Virus record (IMG/VR): IMGVR_UViG_3300028888_000091
Strand: one strand, 5' to 3'
DNA length: 64,000 nucleotides
DNA from: an uncultured virus (IMG/VR IMGVR_UViG_3300028888_000091)
Taxonomy: Duplodnaviria > Heunggongvirae > Uroviricota > Caudoviricetes
The position numbers and the translations under genes were made by a program. Below the pieces are notes generated by a model. That model made no database searches. It had not been told where the DNA came from and worked only from the letters and a program-made list of their open reading frames with translations. The first letter of the stretch is position 1. The number at the start of each line of letters is the position of its first letter. Below are positions 527 to 59,378 of the stretch, piece after piece.

Positions 527-843
527 TAAGAATGAAAAATAAGCATGATGAAATAATTGATAAGATTACAGATATATCCGAAAAATATGAATTTGAATAT
601 TTAGACCAAGATGATGACATAAATGAATTGAAATTAGAATATGTTGGAGATGATTTAATTATCAAATATGAAGAGGATTTTGAAAGATATGAAGAATGGA
701 GAGAAATATTAGATGAACAATCAAAAATAGTTGAAAGAGAATTTGAAAAAGCAATCAAAGAAATCAAAAAGAGTATTAATGTTAAAGAATATGTGTATGA
801 TGATTATGATTATCCATGCGTATACTTATATTATAATATATAG
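520..843 (+). CDS. Acidic hypothetical protein
   Basis: ORF coupled to the upstream gene, GGTGA SD. Confidence 0.65.
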   Translation: MVIRMKNKHDEIIDKITDISEKYEFEYLDQDDDINELKLEYVGDDLIIKYEEDFERYEEWREILDEQSKIVEREFEKAIKEIKKSINVKEYVYDDYDYPCVYLYYNI

Positions 844-887
844 AACCGAAAGGTTTATATACTATGGTAACTAATATAATAATAGAT
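844..887 (+). promoter_or_regulatory. Strong archaeal early promoter, copy 2
   Basis: aaccgaaaggtttatatactatggtaactaatataataatagat; near-identical to 251-294. Confidence 0.85.
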
Positions 888-7367: not shown

Positions 7368-10300
7368 CTAAATATTAATTTCATGTCTATACCTATCTTT
7401 AAATTCTTGCAATTTCCCATCGTTCCATTGTTTTGTTTCACCATTGGAACTTCTTGATATGACTGGAAGATAATATCCAGTAATTCTATCATATACAATT
7501 AAATCTTCACTTCCACAAATTGGACATTTTGTAATATTATCATTAATTGTATATTGACATTCTTGACAATATGTGAATACTTTACTATATGCCCAAAATT
7601 TTGTATTAGTTTTAAGTATTTTTTGATTTAATTTCCATAATGCTTTTGCATCACTCCAAACTTCACCTAACCAAATATGTAATAAATTACCGGCATCAGT
7701 CAATGGATGGAATTTATCTGCATTCTTAATATGTTTAATAATATTACTTTCATCATTAACTGGAATATGAGTAGAATTTGTTAAATATGGACTATCTTTT
7801 GTACCTTGAACAGTAATATCATCATACTTTTGTTTATTTAATTTACCAAATCTGAAACTGGTACTTTCTGCCGGAGAACCAATTACACTCCATCTCCAAC
7901 CATCTCTTTCTTTAAACTCATCTTTTTTTTGATTGATAAATTTAACAATTTCATAACCTAATTCATCATCTTCTGCAAGACTTTTGCCATTTAATTCTAT
8001 TTGTGCTTCATTTAAACCACAAAAACCAATAGTATAAGTACATCTATCAAGGTCATATAATTGTTCACCAGTTTCTTTGTCTTTCTGTAATAAGAAATCA
8101 GACATATGATATTCATAAATGATTTTTTCAACTTCACTTCTACGATGTTTCAAAGTCTTATAAATCACTTCACAATAATAATCTAACTTATTATAAAAAT
8201 TATCCATATCCTCTGACTCATAAGCAATCAAAGGTAAGTTAATTGTAGTATACATAAAGTTCCCAGTATTACAACAATCTTTACTATAATCATTGAAATA
8301 ATTCATAGGAAGAGCAGTGCGACAATTTTCTGAATGAATTCCACCTAAACCACAAACATAATTATGATTATTTTCAATACTTAAATCATAAACCATTTCA
8401 GTATTATCAACTAATTCAATTGATTTAATTTTGGTTTTATTTTTAGGATTATAATTTAAACCAAAAGAAATTCTATAATTAACTCTCCAATTACCACTAT
8501 CACCTATTCTATTATCTACATAAATAGTAGATTGTCTACCAATATAAGATAATGCATATAATACATCAATTACTAATGGTAAATCACTACAACTCCAATC
8601 CCATCTATACTTACTACCTTTTCTACCATCAAACATTAATCCTTTAATAATATTTGAAATAACATTTTTATCATGCCATACCCAATATGGAAAATGTTTA
8701 ATACCATTTATATCATAACATAAATTACATTTATCTCTTAATTCTTTATTTTTTACATAGATGGTATATGAATCATCTTTTCTATCATGAATTTCATAAT
8801 CATAATTATTTTTTTTACATAATTCAATAATTTGATTATATTTCCATTTTTGTTTAATATGAAATTCAATTATATTACTACTTCTACCACGAATTCTATT
8901 TTTATCTCTAACATATCCATCTGCTAAAAAAACACCTATAAATTCAGATTCAAAATCATCATAAGGAATATATGGTTTTTCAATATAATTATATAATTCC
9001 ATACCTATTTCTAAATCTTCACTTTTCACAATTCCTTTATTAGTAGGCAATTTATGATTTTCAGTAACTTTAAATTGATAATTATTATCAAGAGTAATTT
9101 TAAATACATTTGATGGAGCATTTTTAGGAATAATATTATATATTTTATTCCATTCTTTTGACCCATCTTTTGCATAAGTCATAACTGTATCACCAATAGA
9201 TAATTGTTGTGGATATTTAAATCCTTTATCTGTCATAACTGGGGTATCAGAAGTCAAAGCACCCATTACAGTTCTTTCAATCTCTTGACAATTAACATAA
9301 TATAAAGTCGGATTATTAGCACCTAACTCATGTAATAATTTACAATTACCTTCATATTTATCTAAATCACCTTCACGAAGATTGAATAAAATATTTGGGA
9401 AACGATGCCATCTACCTTGACCATCTTTCTCTTCTGAAACTTCTAATACTGCACGAAATATCATATCTGCTTCCTCTTGATAATCTTTATAAGTTCCAAC
9501 TGTTACACCACCAAAACTAACTGCCGGTTCATCTCTTAATACTGGTGGACAAGATAAATCCAATGCAATACTACTAAATAATATTTGTCCACCTCTGCAA
9601 ACAAGACTCATATTACAATTATACATGAAACCTTGAATTGCTTGTTTTATCCGATGATAAGGTAATCCTTTTGCAAAAGGAGAAAGTAATGTATTGAAAT
9701 TCACATATCCTTGACCACCACTAAAAACAGTAGCACCCGCCATAAATGCTTGTAAAAGATGATTTAACAAAACCTCTAAACTTTTTGCCGGTTTTGCAAC
9801 ACTTCCCATAACTCCTTTTCCATCAATCATTAATCCATTACGAGCAAAGAATCTTAAATCATAATTCATACAATTTTGGGTTAATACGAATCCATTGATT
9901 CCCGCAAGATAGTTATGATTATCTTCAATAGTTAAATTATAAACTGCTTGTGTGCCAGTATATTCTATGCTTTTTACTCTTAATTCACTTATTTCTTTAT
10001 ACTTCTTCATATTAGGATTTGCTTTTTCAATTATTGGAATAAATCTATTACAAATATTCATAGATAATAATACTCTTAAAAGTTTTTCTCCAAATGAAGA
10101 ACTATTATATGCATCTTTATGATTAGGATTATCAAATTCAGTAATATTAATAGAACCTCTTATACCAACATTTAATAAACATAATTGATATAAATCAAAA
10201 ATACTTTTATTTGTATTTGTGAAATTTAATCGTAGTACATTATTAATATCTAATCTGATATGACCATCACTATTAATCAATCCCTCTAATATTCCAGTTA

Positions 10301-11414
10301 AATTATACTTGGAAGTGTATTTTTTAATTAATTCATTTTTACTTAATTGAGGATATATTTTATCTTTAAGATAAAATAAATATGAATACCCAGTATCATA
10401 ATGATTAGATTCTTTTTCAGTATATGTGAAATCAATATTTAATCTTTCTAATAAGTCATATAAATATTGTGCTTTATCTTTTTTACTAAAACTAAACTTC
10501 ACATTACCTTTATTTGATATATACCCATCACCTAAAAAGAATCCAAATAAAGCACTTTCATTATAATTATCCATTTCATTATTTGTAAATTCATGTAAAT
10601 CTGTAATATTACATAATCTTAAATCTTTATAATTATTAAATTCAGATACTTTAATATCATATTGTTTTTGTGGTTTATTCTGATGAGATTTGATAAATTT
10701 ATGGTCATATGTACATTCAATACTATATCCTTTACCAAAAGTAATTAGATATGTTTCTTCTGATGGACTGGATAAATAAGCATTTTCTATTTTTTTCCAT
10801 TCCATACTATTAGTTTTAATATTTAAACTCGGCACATAATAAGTTTTATCAGTTAAAAACATTTCTTCTACAAATTCTTTTATTGTTGTATAAGAAATAT
10901 TGTTACTCTCATCTTTGATAACTATATTATTATTTCCACTTAAACAGTTTGGTCTTGTGTTAAAAAATTCAAGGTCATGATGATGCAAGTATCCATTTAT
11001 ATGTGCTTCACTACATTCTGATGGCATTTTCAATAAAGCATATTCTTTTGCAATACTGTCATATGCATATTTACTAACCATTTCGGGATTATATCCAATA
11101 TTTGCATTATCTTGACAACCAAACTTAACTAATTCTTCAAAATCAGAAACACTCATTCCTAATTTTCTACTTTTCTTCTCTTCTTCAATATACCCTTTAC
11201 TAATTAATTGTTGATTGATTAATGCACGAATTGTTGAAGTAGAAATTTCACTTTCATTATATTTATTTTTCAAAGCATGAATTACATTATTTTGGATTTT
11301 ACTTGCTTCTTCTTTATCCAAATTAGTTTCTTCCATTATTTTATAAGTAATTCTCTTTGGTTGAAATGGTTCTAAATCACCATATTTGTTCATAACAAAT
11401 TTAATTTCCATCAT
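7368..11414 (-). CDS. nrdD: Anaerobic (class III) ribonucleoside-triphosphate reductase with two inteins; mature protein about 678 aa
   Basis: N-terminal ATP cone, HHHDL..N-C, FSGGQG, FPN, MG|CR thiyl-radical motif, SPAES, CxxC..CxxC Zn site, RITGYY glycyl-radical motif. Confidence 0.95.
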   Translation of the reverse strand: MMEIKFVMNKYGDLEPFQPKRITYKIMEETNLDKEEASKIQNNVIHALKNKYNESEISTSTIRALINQQLISKGYIEEEKKSRKLGMSVSDFEELVKFGCQDNANIGYNPEMVSKYAYDSIAKEYALLKMPSECSEAHINGYLHHHDLEFFNTRPNCLSGNNNIVIKDESNNISYTTIKEFVEEMFLTDKTYYVPSLNIKTNSMEWKKIENAYLSSPSEETYLITFGKGYSIECTYDHKFIKSHQNKPQKQYDIKVSEFNNYKDLRLCNITDLHEFTNNEMDNYNESALFGFFLGDGYISNKGNVKFSFSKKDKAQYLYDLLERLNIDFTYTEKESNHYDTGYSYLFYLKDKIYPQLSKNELIKKYTSKYNLTGILEGLINSDGHIRLDINNVLRLNFTNTNKSIFDLYQLCLLNVGIRGSINITEFDNPNHKDAYNSSSFGEKLLRVLLSMNICNRFIPIIEKANPNMKKYKEISELRVKSIEYTGTQAVYNLTIEDNHNYLAGINGFVLTQNCMNYDLRFFARNGLMIDGKGVMGSVAKPAKSLEVLLNHLLQAFMAGATVFSGGQGYVNFNTLLSPFAKGLPYHRIKQAIQGFMYNCNMSLVCRGGQILFSSIALDLSCPPVLRDEPAVSFGGVTVGTYKDYQEEADMIFRAVLEVSEEKDGQGRWHRFPNILFNLREGDLDKYEGNCKLLHELGANNPTLYYVNCQEIERTVMGALTSDTPVMTDKGFKYPQQLSIGDTVMTYAKDGSKEWNKIYNIIPKNAPSNVFKITLDNNYQFKVTENHKLPTNKGIVKSEDLEIGMELYNYIEKPYIPYDDFESEFIGVFLADGYVRDKNRIRGRSSNIIEFHIKQKWKYNQIIELCKKNNYDYEIHDRKDDSYTIYVKNKELRDKCNLCYDINGIKHFPYWVWHDKNVISNIIKGLMFDGRKGSKYRWDWSCSDLPLVIDVLYALSYIGRQSTIYVDNRIGDSGNWRVNYRISFGLNYNPKNKTKIKSIELVDNTEMVYDLSIENNHNYVCGLGGIHSENCRTALPMNYFNDYSKDCCNTGNFMYTTINLPLIAYESEDMDNFYNKLDYYCEVIYKTLKHRRSEVEKIIYEYHMSDFLLQKDKETGEQLYDLDRCTYTIGFCGLNEAQIELNGKSLAEDDELGYEIVKFINQKKDEFKERDGWRWSVIGSPAESTSFRFGKLNKQKYDDITVQGTKDSPYLTNSTHIPVNDESNIIKHIKNADKFHPLTDAGNLLHIWLGEVWSDAKALWKLNQKILKTNTKFWAYSKVFTYCQECQYTINDNITKCPICGSEDLIVYDRITGYYLPVISRSSNGETKQWNDGKLQEFKDRYRHEINI
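8325..9260 (-). mobile_element. Intein 2 in NrdD (312 aa, Ala1...SEN/C) with LAGLIDADG-like domain
   Basis: Splits MG|CR; ALTSDTPV start, VTENH, FIGVFLADG, VYDLSIENNHNY...SEN. Confidence 0.9.
9873..10946 (-). mobile_element. Intein 1 in NrdD (358 aa, Cys1...TQN/C) with LAGLIDADG homing endonuclease
   Basis: CLSGNN start, CTYDH block B, LFGFFLGDG and LEGLINSDG, VYNLTIEDNHNY...TQN followed by extein Cys. Confidence 0.92.
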
Positions 11415-18958: not shown

Positions 18959-20122
18959 TTATTGGAAAAATGTCAAATGAGGCATGACTTGTAAATAAGT
19001 ATTTTTAATACTTTCTTTATTAAATAACTCTTCACTTTCACCTACATAAAATTTATCAGTATTAATTGAAGATGCATGACCTTCCATCAATAAACTAATA
19101 TCTCTATTAGTAGTATATGCACGAAGTGTACTAATAAACCTATGTCTTAAACTATGAGGATGAAATCTTGGAATAGATTCTTTTCTTTGTTTCCATTCTT
19201 TTCTACTAATTTTGTGATTTTTAAATAACTCATCTAATTCATTTTCTTTATGTTGTTTTAATAATTTATTTTTATTAAAAAACATAACTGAAATACTTTT
19301 TTCATCAAATTTTCCAATATAATTTCGTTTTCTACTACTAAACAAAGGACATTCTCCATCTAATACTAAATCATCACCATATTCTTTATTATGTCTTTCA
19401 ATACTTTTCATTCTTAATTTTAAACTTTGAATGAGTAAATTAGATGCTTCTGTACTACAACATACTTTACATGGTAATCCAGTTTTTTTAGTTTTATTTG
19501 GAATAAACTCAAAATAAGGTATCATATTTTGTGGTGCTTTTTCCAAAAATTCTTCAACAGATACTGCATCAACATAATCACAACAAGCATAAATAAGACA
19601 ATCTATTGTAAATTCATGAACTAAATCATATCTTCTAACTCCAGTTGAAGCCATAAAAGTAATTAATGCTTGATGATGAATATTTGAATTATTTAAAATA
19701 AATCTAATATCATCAGTTGTTATCAATTGAACTTTACTTTGTGTCTGTTCTGATTTAAAAACAACTTTTGGAGTTTCAATATTACTTTTTTTTAATATTA
19801 CTAATAATTGCTTTATTTTTAAATTTATTGTACTTTTTTTATTATTTTTTTCGACAAGATAATTTGTAAATATACGAATATAATCATTAATTAAACTATC
19901 ATTAGGATTATATCTTATAATATCTGTTCCATTAATGATTTTATCTCTTTGAAGTTCTTTAACTTCTTTAACTATATCTGAATATGGTTTTCCTATACAA
20001 TTGCAGAATTGTTTTATTACTGAATAATATGTTGCAACTGAATATGGACTTAATTCATTTTTATCAATTATTTTTAATACTTCTATATCTTCATCAACAT
20101 TATATGTTTTTGCATCATACAT
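18959..20122 (-). CDS. int: Tyrosine recombinase / integrase
   Basis: STGVRR (R), KTKK (K), HSLRH (HxxR), MEGH, FY catalytic Tyr; own TATA (~20160) and AGGTGA SD. Confidence 0.9.
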   Translation of the reverse strand: MYDAKTYNVDEDIEVLKIIDKNELSPYSVATYYSVIKQFCNCIGKPYSDIVKEVKELQRDKIINGTDIIRYNPNDSLINDYIRIFTNYLVEKNNKKSTINLKIKQLLVILKKSNIETPKVVFKSEQTQSKVQLITTDDIRFILNNSNIHHQALITFMASTGVRRYDLVHEFTIDCLIYACCDYVDAVSVEEFLEKAPQNMIPYFEFIPNKTKKTGLPCKVCCSTEASNLLIQSLKLRMKSIERHNKEYGDDLVLDGECPLFSSRKRNYIGKFDEKSISVMFFNKNKLLKQHKENELDELFKNHKISRKEWKQRKESIPRFHPHSLRHRFISTLRAYTTNRDISLLMEGHASSINTDKFYVGESEELFNKESIKNTYLQVMPHLTFFQ

Positions 20123-44398: not shown

Positions 44399-45595
44399 TT
44401 ACCAGTATAATCCTAATCCTCTTCTTCTCAATCTCTTAATTGTTTGTGTATCATATACACTTGTCTGTTTTGCCATATTCTTTGCTTGTGATGGTGATAA
44501 AGAATTAATATAACTACCACTCAATGACTTTCTACCACTACTTGATGAAGACCTACTTGTAGTGCCAGTCCTACCACTATGTTTATTACTCCTATTAACT
44601 GGTGAACTACTACTTGAACTACTTGAAGAACTACTACTTGAACTACTTGAACTACTTGAAGAACTATCACTTGAACTACTTGTATCACCAATTTCTGATG
44701 AATCAGTAATTATCTTCATACCACCATTCCTCTGTTTACGATAATTCGGCAAACCCAATTCTTTCAACAACTCATCAGTTGGAATATGTTCTTTAAAGAA
44801 AATTTCACTTTCTTCATAATTAGGTTCTTCAACACCAGTAGCACTCCATTCGGCATCACAACTCCTTCTCAACTTCAACTTCATTGCAACACCTTTATAT
44901 AAATACTTATAATCTTTTCCTCTAAATACTAATTCAACATTCCCACTACCAGTAGGAGAATCATAAGACTTATCAAAACTAATAGAAGCAATTTCCATAT
45001 AAGGTTTTATCTGCATAATATTTCCCTTATGTGGAGTAAAATTATCTTTATCATCCCATTCTTGTTCATCATCTTCTTTATTCTCATCACCTTGATTACC
45101 ATTAGATGATAAAGGACTACCACTAATAGCACTTAAAAGATTAGTAACTGCTTCTTTAGAATTACCGGCATAAACACACCGACATCTATCTTTTGCTATT
45201 TGATTAATCTCTGCATAAGTTTTACCTTGCCACTTATCACATAACTTACCAACACAATCTCCATGATGGTCTTTTGGAATACCTTTTGTATCAAAATCAT
45301 TTTGTGATTTGATTAATCCACTAATATCACCACGAATAACAAAATAATGATAATCAAAACCCGGTCTTGCAGAATACCCATCAGTAACTGACACCAAACT
45401 TGCCGCCATCAAATATATACCAATTTTACCTTTTGGATTTTTACCATTTTTTGCATAATCATAATTTGCAAAATAACCCGGCCCAATACTTAATTTTTCA
45501 ACTTGATGACCGGCATCCTCTAAACCTTTTGCAACTTCATTTTGATAACTGGCATCAGAACCATTACTATCACAACCAAGAACTATTGAAGCCAT
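44399..45595 (-). CDS. Baseplate hub N-proximal part with N-terminal alpha/beta cargo domain
   Basis: IASISFDKSYD..G.G.VEL..YKGV.MKL hub-like strands; Ser-rich tail. Confidence 0.55.
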   Translation of the reverse strand: MASIVLGCDSNGSDASYQNEVAKGLEDAGHQVEKLSIGPGYFANYDYAKNGKNPKGKIGIYLMAASLVSVTDGYSARPGFDYHYFVIRGDISGLIKSQNDFDTKGIPKDHHGDCVGKLCDKWQGKTYAEINQIAKDRCRCVYAGNSKEAVTNLLSAISGSPLSSNGNQGDENKEDDEQEWDDKDNFTPHKGNIMQIKPYMEIASISFDKSYDSPTGSGNVELVFRGKDYKYLYKGVAMKLKLRRSCDAEWSATGVEEPNYEESEIFFKEHIPTDELLKELGLPNYRKQRNGGMKIITDSSEIGDTSSSSDSSSSSSSSSSSSSSSSSSSSSPVNRSNKHSGRTGTTSRSSSSSGRKSLSGSYINSLSPSQAKNMAKQTSVYDTQTIKRLRRRGLGLYW

Positions 45596-45644
45596 AAAAA
45601 ATCATTAAACCTCCAAAAAAACATTAAAATATATCTAAAATAAA

Positions 45645-45715
45645 TGGGTAGTATGGGATTTGAACCCATAAAAAAATTGTAACATGATGTCTTTTTTCTC
45701 CTCTTCTGACTACCC
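45645..45715 (-). ncRNA. tRNA-like element (acceptor stem plus canonical T arm; no D stem, no valid anticodon arm)
   Basis: GGGUAGU...AUGGG-UUCAAAU-CCCAU-ACUACCC-A; perfect 7-bp and 5-bp stems; intergenic. Confidence 0.75.
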
Positions 45716-45736
45716 AATATGAAAAAATAAAAAAAT

Positions 45737-46120
45737 TTATGAATCACCATTGTTAGATGATGAATCATTATTACTATTACTATTATCATCAGAATTACTA
45801 TTACTATCACTATTATTAGTATCAGTATCTGATGAATTACTATCACTACTTGTATCAGTACCAGTATCAGAACTACTATCATCTGATGAAGAAGAAGCAC
45901 CAACATTATAAGGACTTATATACGGAATATACTCTAACTCATTCGTGCGATATACTTCCATATATGGTATAGTAATAGGTGCATTAGATGGAACTAATTC
46001 TTCAATCTTAAAAATCTTAACATCTTCTGCATCAACTTCAACTTCACCAGTAATATTTTTACCAGTAGTATCAGAAGTAGTATTATTTACATTAAAAGAT
46101 GAATCATTTGTTTCAGTCAT
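45737..46120 (-). CDS. Small Ser/Asp/Asn-rich protein, possible first fragment of the hub
   Basis: IPYMEVYRT strand followed by a low-complexity linker. Confidence 0.55.
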   Translation of the reverse strand: MTETNDSSFNVNNTTSDTTGKNITGEVEVDAEDVKIFKIEELVPSNAPITIPYMEVYRTNELEYIPYISPYNVGASSSSDDSSSDTGTDTSSDSNSSDTDTNNSDSNSNSDDNSNSNNDSSSNNGDS

Positions 46121-59124: not shown

Positions 59125-59283
59125 AATTATCTATTTTATTCTCTCCTCTCTTTTTTTGATTTTAAAAATAAAATCTCCACCACATTAATAGAGAAATGGA
59201 GGTGATATTTTATTTTATTGTTTTTTTTTTTAAACATGAAAAGGAGAATATTCTCCTTTCCACAAATTAATATGGTGGGTTAT

Positions 59284-59313
59284 AAAAAAACAGAACATAA
59301 AAATTATGTTCTG
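59284..59313 (-). terminator. Hairpin plus U7 directly after the tRNA-like element
   Basis: CAGAACATAA-TTT-TTATGTTCTG-TTTTTTT on the - strand. Confidence 0.65.
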
Positions 59314-59316
59314 AAG

Positions 59317-59378
59317 TTCAACTAAAAGGAATCGAACCTTTGCAATGTAATTCTTTACCTAAATCGAATTATAGTTGA
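59317..59378 (-). ncRNA. tRNA-like element (acceptor stem, D arm, T arm; anticodon arm absent)
   Basis: UCAACUA-UA-AUUC-GAUUUAGGUAAA-GAAU-UACAUUGC-AAAGG-UUCGAUU-CCUUU-UAGUUGA-A. Confidence 0.75.

Follow-up and report, generated by a model that had tools for sequence, protein, structure and literature searches.

The signal closest to the one described here is the t-element of Haloferax volcanii, a tRNA-like structure upstream of the 5S rRNA that is cut by tRNase Z (PMC4326828). It has been reused to flank crRNAs for release by RNase P and tRNase Z (PMC4326828, which cites Hoelzle 2008, 2012). Plant mitochondrial t-elements, found through the motif GGTTCRANYCC and with ends mapped experimentally, lie at the 5′ or 3′ ends of mRNAs and sometimes in the end of a reading frame (nad6, ccmC) (PMC1920247). 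Phage substrates of RNase P named in PMC11143913 include the P1/P7 C4 antisense RNA, M3 RNA and T4 tRNA precursors, and Escherichia coli polycistronic mRNAs are substrates too. Archaeal RNase P can cut model substrates that are hairpins, recognizing the T stem-loop, N-1 and G+1 (PMC3035440); the elbow is the point from which RNase Z and the CCA enzyme measure (PMC4810234). A tRNA-like gene of halovirus HF2 has been described as attP (PMC8707807; PMC7911831).

We analyzed a 64,000-nt stretch of DNA (the window), which is the first 64 kb of a virus record of 92,534 bases with 26% G+C. The genome comprises a terminase–portal–minor head–protease–capsid block and a tail block that includes the tape measure and baseplate wedge genes; it also carries replication genes and one for an integrase. 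Between two genes of the tail block, and on their strand, lies a 71-nt copy of the top half of a tRNA (element A). Judging from its sequence, we think it probable that element A is a t-element of the late operon, cut by host RNase P and/or tRNase Z. The features of the locus are:

45737..46120, minus strand: upstream gene, 127 aa, conserved in relatives, no family match
45716..45736, minus strand: U-rich spacer of 21 nt past the upstream stop codon, possibly a terminator-like tract or an unstructured RNase P leader (sequence)
45645..45715, minus strand: element A, the whole tRNA top-half mimic (sequence, folding, shuffle test)
45709..45715, minus strand: 5′ strand of the acceptor stem, G+1 first, with U-1 at 45716 (sequence; same in relative X3)
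45670..45708, minus strand: variable middle of 39 nt that replaces the D and anticodon arms, with a weak A/U stem and a 4-bp hairpin
45653..45669, minus strand: T-arm, 5-bp stem, loop UUCAAAU (sequence)
45645..45652, minus strand: 3′ strand of the acceptor stem and discriminator A, no encoded CCA (sequence)
45609..45614, minus strand: GGAGGT, ribosome-binding site for the downstream gene, on the 3′ side of both predicted cuts (sequence)
44399..45595, minus strand: downstream gene, 398 aa, tail/baseplate region, no family match

Like the Haloferax t-element, element A is an archaeal, tRNA-like, non-decoding cis element within a longer transcript, built of an acceptor stem and a T-arm and with the same predicted enzymes. 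The virus elements differ in standing at protein-gene junctions, in numbering up to 12 per genome with many unrelated sequences, and in that their cleavage is predicted. The plant elements are organellar and have mapped ends, whereas the virus ends are predicted. Plant mitochondrial RNase P is protein-only. Phage RNase P substrates are likewise viral RNAs matured by the host enzyme (as predicted here), but they are single small RNAs or true tRNAs of bacterial systems, in contrast to a signal that is dispersed, multi-copy, archaeal and without an Rfam match.

Sequence and pair probabilities agree with a preliminary description of this locus as a 71-nt minus-strand element with perfect acceptor stem and T-arm and discriminator A. 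The acceptor strands GGGUAGU (45715-45709) and ACUACCC (45652-45646) pair at 7/7 positions; the T-arm at 45669-45653 reads AUGGG-UUCAAAU-CCCAU with 5/5 stem pairs, and the discriminator A is at 45645. Folded in silico in its flanked context, the element has 12/12 of these pairs at probability >0.5 (mean 0.96), and its total folding energy is moderately unusual (z −2.2; 6/200 shuffles equally good). The GAAAAAA/UUUUUUU fold claimed earlier for the middle appears in the minimum-energy structure and is absent from the centroid; according to the folding model, the middle is weakly folded. The proposed genome-wide search for the T-loop with a 7-bp stem was fruitful: a strict 7+5 bp/TTCRANY rule applied to the 92.5-kb genome gave 2 sites, element A and 59317-59378 (element B), versus 0 in 150 dinucleotide shuffles of the genome.

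ARAGORN at default settings called no tRNA or tmRNA in the window (relaxed thresholds gave 147–258 noise calls, which we discarded). Rfam gave no match with E ≤ 10 at element A and, at element B, a weak opposite-strand match (E 0.81) that we disregarded. In agreement with these negatives, element A has neither a D arm nor an in-register anticodon stem-loop; the best anticodon-stem register in its middle pairs 3/5 positions by eye, and indels in relatives shift the register. An intron-containing or split archaeal tRNA does not fit either, since intron removal cannot restore D and anticodon arms in a middle that is already just 39 nt. Element A does combine an acceptor stem and a T-arm carrying a GGTTCRANYCC-type loop with a non-canonical cloverleaf, on the coding strand of a gene junction that is presumably co-transcribed. 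It should work like a t-element; strict membership in that class rests on cleavage, here predicted.

Canonical tRNAs and the tmRNA tRNA-like domain have in common with element A the acceptor stem, T-arm, discriminator and 39-nt middle length, but element A is without a D stem, anticodon arm, G3-U70 or tag frame. The tRNA-like domain of tmRNA carries a G3-U70 alanine identity pair, a CCA end and an attached tag reading frame. The tmRNA likeness suggested earlier is not supported: element A has G3-C70 and no CCA, ARAGORN is negative for tmRNA, and the UGCAAAU loop of relatives would lose the U55 contact with the D-loop GG.

Element A is located 21 nt past the stop codon of the upstream gene and 50 nt ahead of the start codon of the downstream gene. 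Its assignment to a baseplate hub cluster is supported only indirectly. Both flanking genes sit between the tape measure gene and the baseplate wedge gene, and 3/5 tested distant homologues of the downstream protein match Pfam YQBQ-like (1 above the cut-off); the flanking genes themselves have no Pfam or PHROG match, and a sequence search of the PDB with the downstream protein found a low-complexity match only. A 107-aa minus-strand ORF (45583-45906) covering element A looks spurious, because it overlaps both neighboring genes and relatives carry 2- and 1-nt indels in it. Residues 1-170 of the downstream protein (44399-45595, minus strand) form an N-terminal domain without a Pfam or PHROG match. 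The domain is found again in larger host proteins and, in related proviruses, as a fusion with YQBQ-like hub proteins; its alignment is matched by 51/251 host-family genomes, and it is possibly cell-wall-related.

The stems of element A are conserved selectively. Two contigs from public runs, X3 and X9, cover the element. Over 1,082 nt, X3 (95% identical) differs from the window by about 34 substitutions (32 tabulated) and 18 gap letters; 0/24 stem positions are altered, and the middle carries a 2-nt deletion at 45670 and a 1-nt insertion at 45694. Loop position 55 changes from U to G, giving UGCAAAU in place of UUCAAAU. Downstream, the 49-nt spacer differs by 9 substitutions and 5 insertions; the U-rich spacer upstream is unaltered like the stems, so conservation extends beyond them. 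X9 has the same three changes in element A (the comparison displays 21 of 24 substitutions). The homologue P0005, 60% identical to the downstream protein, is called from an upstream AUG, and its N-terminus MGSNPIP is compatible with translation of the same T-arm at nearly the same distance; the codons after it differ, which implies, from the protein sequence alone, a different acceptor 3′ strand.

Presence at the site is patchy. Element A is found in 3/7 DNA sources (the window, X3 and X9), is absent from the site in L009, L010, L011/L018 and L017, and has no counterpart of its type at 20 loci of distant homologues of the downstream gene (0/20). Conservation is thus limited to a subclade; beyond this, as its absence from the more distant loci shows, element A can be dispensed with. 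At this site, no intact tRNA is found in any of the 7 sources, and no two-sided compensatory change was seen in element A itself; the covariation evidence comes from sister sites. A search of IMG/VR for orthologues recovered only a near-identical copy of the same virus; the other 23/24 matches were rejected, being mostly real tRNAs in another register (ARAGORN called a tRNA at the match in 11/12 tested loci). In RNA run X2, which is one study seen as assembled contigs that show neither RNA ends nor levels, a contig of depth 37 begins within element A at 45678, crosses the predicted tRNase Z site with no differences and extends into the downstream gene, which shows that molecules not cut there (or DNA) are present. 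Upstream, the contig depth is 6, and no long piece covers 45679-45935, a gap that spans a low-complexity repeat.

With loop variants allowed, the genome holds 12 elements: A, B and ten near-identical copies, one preceding each small gene of an array at 88,530-92,435 (plus strand of G000:C1, outside the window). The array copies fit the same tRNA-mimic rule, with loop TTTAAAT, a 7-bp acceptor, U-1/G+1 and middles of 1–24 nt; in one, the T stem is separated from the 5′ acceptor strand by a 24-nt insert. We scanned 1.11 Mb from 32 related virus records or loci, excluding G001 (near-identical to the window genome) and G018 (a near-duplicate of G020). The rule, which was set after the first matches were inspected and itself demands pairing and loop consensus, gave 41 matches versus 2 in reversed and 0.8 in shuffled sequence. 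These comprise 30 intergenic matches, 7 ARAGORN tRNAs, 3 matches in same-strand ORFs (element A and two copies of one likely chance match) and 1 in an opposite-strand ORF. The intergenic matches and element A make 31 non-tRNA elements in 16/32 records, a count that overstates the number of independent cases, as 10/31 are near-identical repeats; one intergenic match (L055 10301) does not fold and is probably due to chance.

U-1 occurs in 30/31 of the non-tRNA elements and U-1 plus G+1 in 26/31; by sequence group, 8/8 G-starting groups have U-1, and the B class is without G+1. Every element has U or A as discriminator, and none encodes CCA. Same-strand ORFs flank 26/31 on both sides. Loop variation stays within T54-x-x-R57-A58-x-Y60, the TATA-box-like loop TTTAAAT occurs in 13/31, and middles range from 1 to 106 nt. 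Two-sided stem changes are found in further syntenic sets (L039/L045; L033/L034; G013/G024). Folding of sense versus antisense strands does not separate them for most elements; the strand evidence is loop polarity. In 712 kb of host DNA from three draft genomes, the scan gave 6 matches, all real tRNAs (6/7 ARAGORN calls), and 0 non-tRNA mimics. The earlier proposal of a punctuation system rather than chance relics is supported by these data, and the system is larger than then described, with 12 elements in the genome, a family in related viruses and RNase P-type edges in most members.

Several other tRNA-like sequences were seen in these viruses. A degenerate region at ~82,220-82,400 of G000:C1 (minus strand, outside the window) has a TTCGATT T-arm and an A/U-rich acceptor of 7–8 bp; its orthologue in G002 (L049 4610) has a 103-nt middle with a possible Tyr anticodon loop, and the region may represent a tRNA that is turning into a mimic. 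The human-gut Methanobacteriales virus vir080 has an unannotated top half upstream of its packaging genes (L006 10525-10660), a type also present in G012 and G017, with a structured middle of 103–105 nt. L022 (11606), L028 (11604) and the vir080-like group have a top half with a 6-bp acceptor between tube and tail-chaperone genes. Aberrant tRNA-like genes at L018 1467-1566, G019 8434-8636 and G020 (L079 2508-2670) have perfect top halves with oversized or odd middles, and ARAGORN calls them only with introns.

The second strict site is listed as follows:

59317..59378, minus strand: element B, sister top-half mimic at the junction of the minor-head (MuF-like) and protease genes, without G+1

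Element B overlaps the last codons and the stop of the minor-head gene, and its 5′ strand falls within those codons. The 5′ strand belongs to the upstream reading frame in L005 too, and in both cases cleavage by RNase P would take the stop codon off the frame. Element B resembles the plant nad6 and ccmC t-elements in this respect. It folds poorly in silico (mean pair probability 0.31) and is conserved with compensatory changes. We defined a test of this junction by position, not pairing, as the stretch from the minor-head (or portal) gene to the protease gene. A top-half element is present on the coding strand in 17/26 loci and on the other strand in 0, against 0.05 expected; some loci are near-duplicates, and L012 is the same virus as the window. 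The 17 elements have stems that are changed yet paired, middles of 2–50 nt and an insertion point that is always where the lower half of a tRNA sits. Compared by structural register, given middles of differing length, the stems of L013, L014, L015, L016 and L017 show complete turnover and are still paired (middles 2–30 nt). In L018 (1/26 loci) an intact tRNA-Met occupies the junction, and tRNA and mimic are therefore interchangeable there. Just past element B, at 59270-59290 (minus strand), is a motif, TTTTTTATAACCCACCATA, which is kept in L013-L017 despite element turnover and has one clear copy in the genome; it is a candidate late promoter.

We infer that the host is a ruminant-gut Methanobrevibacter, for three reasons: among annotated phage records the capsid protein matches only two copies of vir080, whose host belongs to the Methanobacteriales; relatives of the putative sheath gene occur in 28 viral contigs and 9 archaeal draft-genome loci, 8/9 of them titled Methanobrevibacter; and public runs containing the region are mostly from sheep and goat gut. 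The processing enzymes are encoded there: among five incomplete Methanobrevibacter drafts with related proviruses, RNase P RNA is found in 3/5 and RNase Z and the CCA enzyme each in 4/5.

We further infer that element A folds in vivo and is cleaved. As a conserved 7+5 bp copy of the tRNA top half at a late-operon gene junction, it would be cut on its 5′ side by host RNase P, between 45716 and 45715 at G+1, and perhaps on its 3′ side by host tRNase Z, after 45645 (A73). The RNase P cut would end the upstream message 21 nt past the stop codon, and the message of the downstream tail gene would then have a new 5′ end, capped by a 12-bp helix. With the tRNase Z cut, the downstream message would start 49 nt before its AUG with the ribosome-binding site intact. 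Cleavage would part the tape-measure block upstream from the tail block downstream, and would probably benefit the virus by letting the stability and translation of gene blocks be controlled separately without viral nucleases. B-type elements are predicted to be cut on the 3′ side only and to remain as a tRNA-like 3′ end, because they have no G+1 and twice overlap the upstream reading frame. Besides the family scan, the head-gene junctions, the X3 comparison, the host enzyme genes and the known t-elements described above, two properties favor the t-element reading: the 12-bp acceptor/T-arm geometry is what RNase P, tRNase Z and the CCA enzyme measure, and U-1 and G+1 are both RNase P determinants. 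It is weakened by the patchy presence at the site, by the X2 contig across the 3′ edge, and by the frame overlap and poor fold of element B.

A broader reading, which we put forward as possible and hold tentatively, is that gut-methanogen viruses run a mitochondria-style tRNA punctuation, with up to 12 top halves per genome in two classes, by which late and accessory operons would be cut by host enzymes. Elements with U-1/G+1 before start codons would call RNase P; those without G, after the minor-head gene, would recruit tRNase Z alone, with a tRNA-like 3′ cap as the result. The host itself would not use its enzymes in this way. A tRNA gene carried by the virus, freed from selection on its lower half, may be the ancestor of element A. 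Its 39-nt middle has canonical spacing (related viral tRNAs have 39–43 nt) and its T-arm is identical to that of the tRNA-Thr(UGU) of a related virus, G005. Such an origin is plausible and compatible with the t-element reading.

The conservation and strand bias would also be explained by an uncut structural element: the folded top half would remain part of the mRNA and either block nucleases or be bound by a host or viral protein that recognizes T-arms. The RNA contig continuous across the 3′ edge and the overlap of B-type copies with a reading frame, which cutting on the 5′ side would damage, fit it as well. We nevertheless regard it as unlikely, as a roadblock needs no exact 7+5 ruler, no U-1/G+1 edges and no interchange with a real tRNA. 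Cleavage on both sides would free a 71-nt piece, which could gain CCA and titrate a host tRNA-binding or anti-virus factor. Such a decoy, raised in the preliminary description, is in keeping with plant t-elements recovered as small RNAs with added C or CC (PMC1920247) and with copies that are many in the virus and absent from the host sample. The data speak against it and make it quite improbable: element A has no anticodon loop for anticodon nucleases, no encoded CCA and no G3-U70, sequence and size vary freely across the family, and copies are dispersed at gene junctions rather than gathered in a dedicated promoter-driven cluster.

The decayed tRNA gene that the preliminary description allowed for survives as an origin, suggested by the middle length and T-arm noted above and by the tRNA-Met at the sister site. 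Intact and degenerate tRNAs in the clade and the patchiness of element A could also point to neutral decay, which we rate as very improbable. Decay would strike all arms alike, yet all 24/24 stem positions are perfect and unaltered in X3, a retention that simple decay leaves unexplained, while the middle is unrecognizable and carries indels; no source has an intact tRNA at the site, and members with middles of 1–9 nt are repeated ten times in one array. Highly improbable, too, is a DNA-level promoter or protein-binding hairpin with the loop as a TATA box. Array-copy AAGGTTTAAAT does resemble promoter-like AAAGGTTTATAT at window 256 and 849, and start codons follow 26–70 nt downstream. However, the loop of element A (TTCAAAT/TGCAAAT) is no TATA box, orthologous copies swap TTTAAAT for TTCGATT (L045 versus L039; B site of L015 versus the window), a real tRNA replaces the element at a syntenic site, and inserts are confined to the stretch from the 5′ acceptor strand to the T stem. 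For the array copies, a dual role as promoter and mimic is conceivable. An attP-like copy of a host tRNA 3′ end, for the viral integrase (18959-20122), is largely refuted and retains next to no probability. The precedent of HF2 (PMC8707807) likewise concerns a tRNA-like sequence without function in a tailed archaeal virus that has an integrase, but the 25-nt 3′ half of element A, with ≤3 mismatches, matches 0/201 host-family genomes. Element A is also 25 kb from the integrase inside the tail operon, and it is one of 12 unrelated copies and has a perfectly paired 5′ acceptor strand that attP does not need.

If the elements are cut as predicted, an archaeal virus turns the tRNA-maturation enzymes of its host to the processing of its mRNAs in general, and the literature searched describes no such layer of gene control for archaeal viruses. 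That search, of openly accessible full texts, found no report of such elements in methanogen viruses, and the word 'tRNA' is absent from the MSTV1 paper (PMC11375127). Tools that find tRNAs miss top-half elements, which are thus probably unannotated in many virus genomes. The t-element reading is directly testable, since RNA ends are predicted to the nucleotide. The natural series of middles from 1 to 106 nt, loop variants and an intact syntenic tRNA maps the tolerance of archaeal RNase P and tRNase Z, and also how tRNA genes become cis signals. Compact natural t-elements could be parts for multi-gene or guide-RNA expression in methanogens, comparable to the Haloferax t-element in haloarchaea.

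Two further observations concern the first part of the window. The 1,348-aa product of 7368-11414 (minus strand) matches anaerobic ribonucleotide reductase in three separated stretches, which suggests insertions such as inteins. A promoter-like motif, CCGAAAGGTTTATATACTATGGTAAC, is repeated at 249-270 and 842-863 (plus strand), ahead of early small genes.
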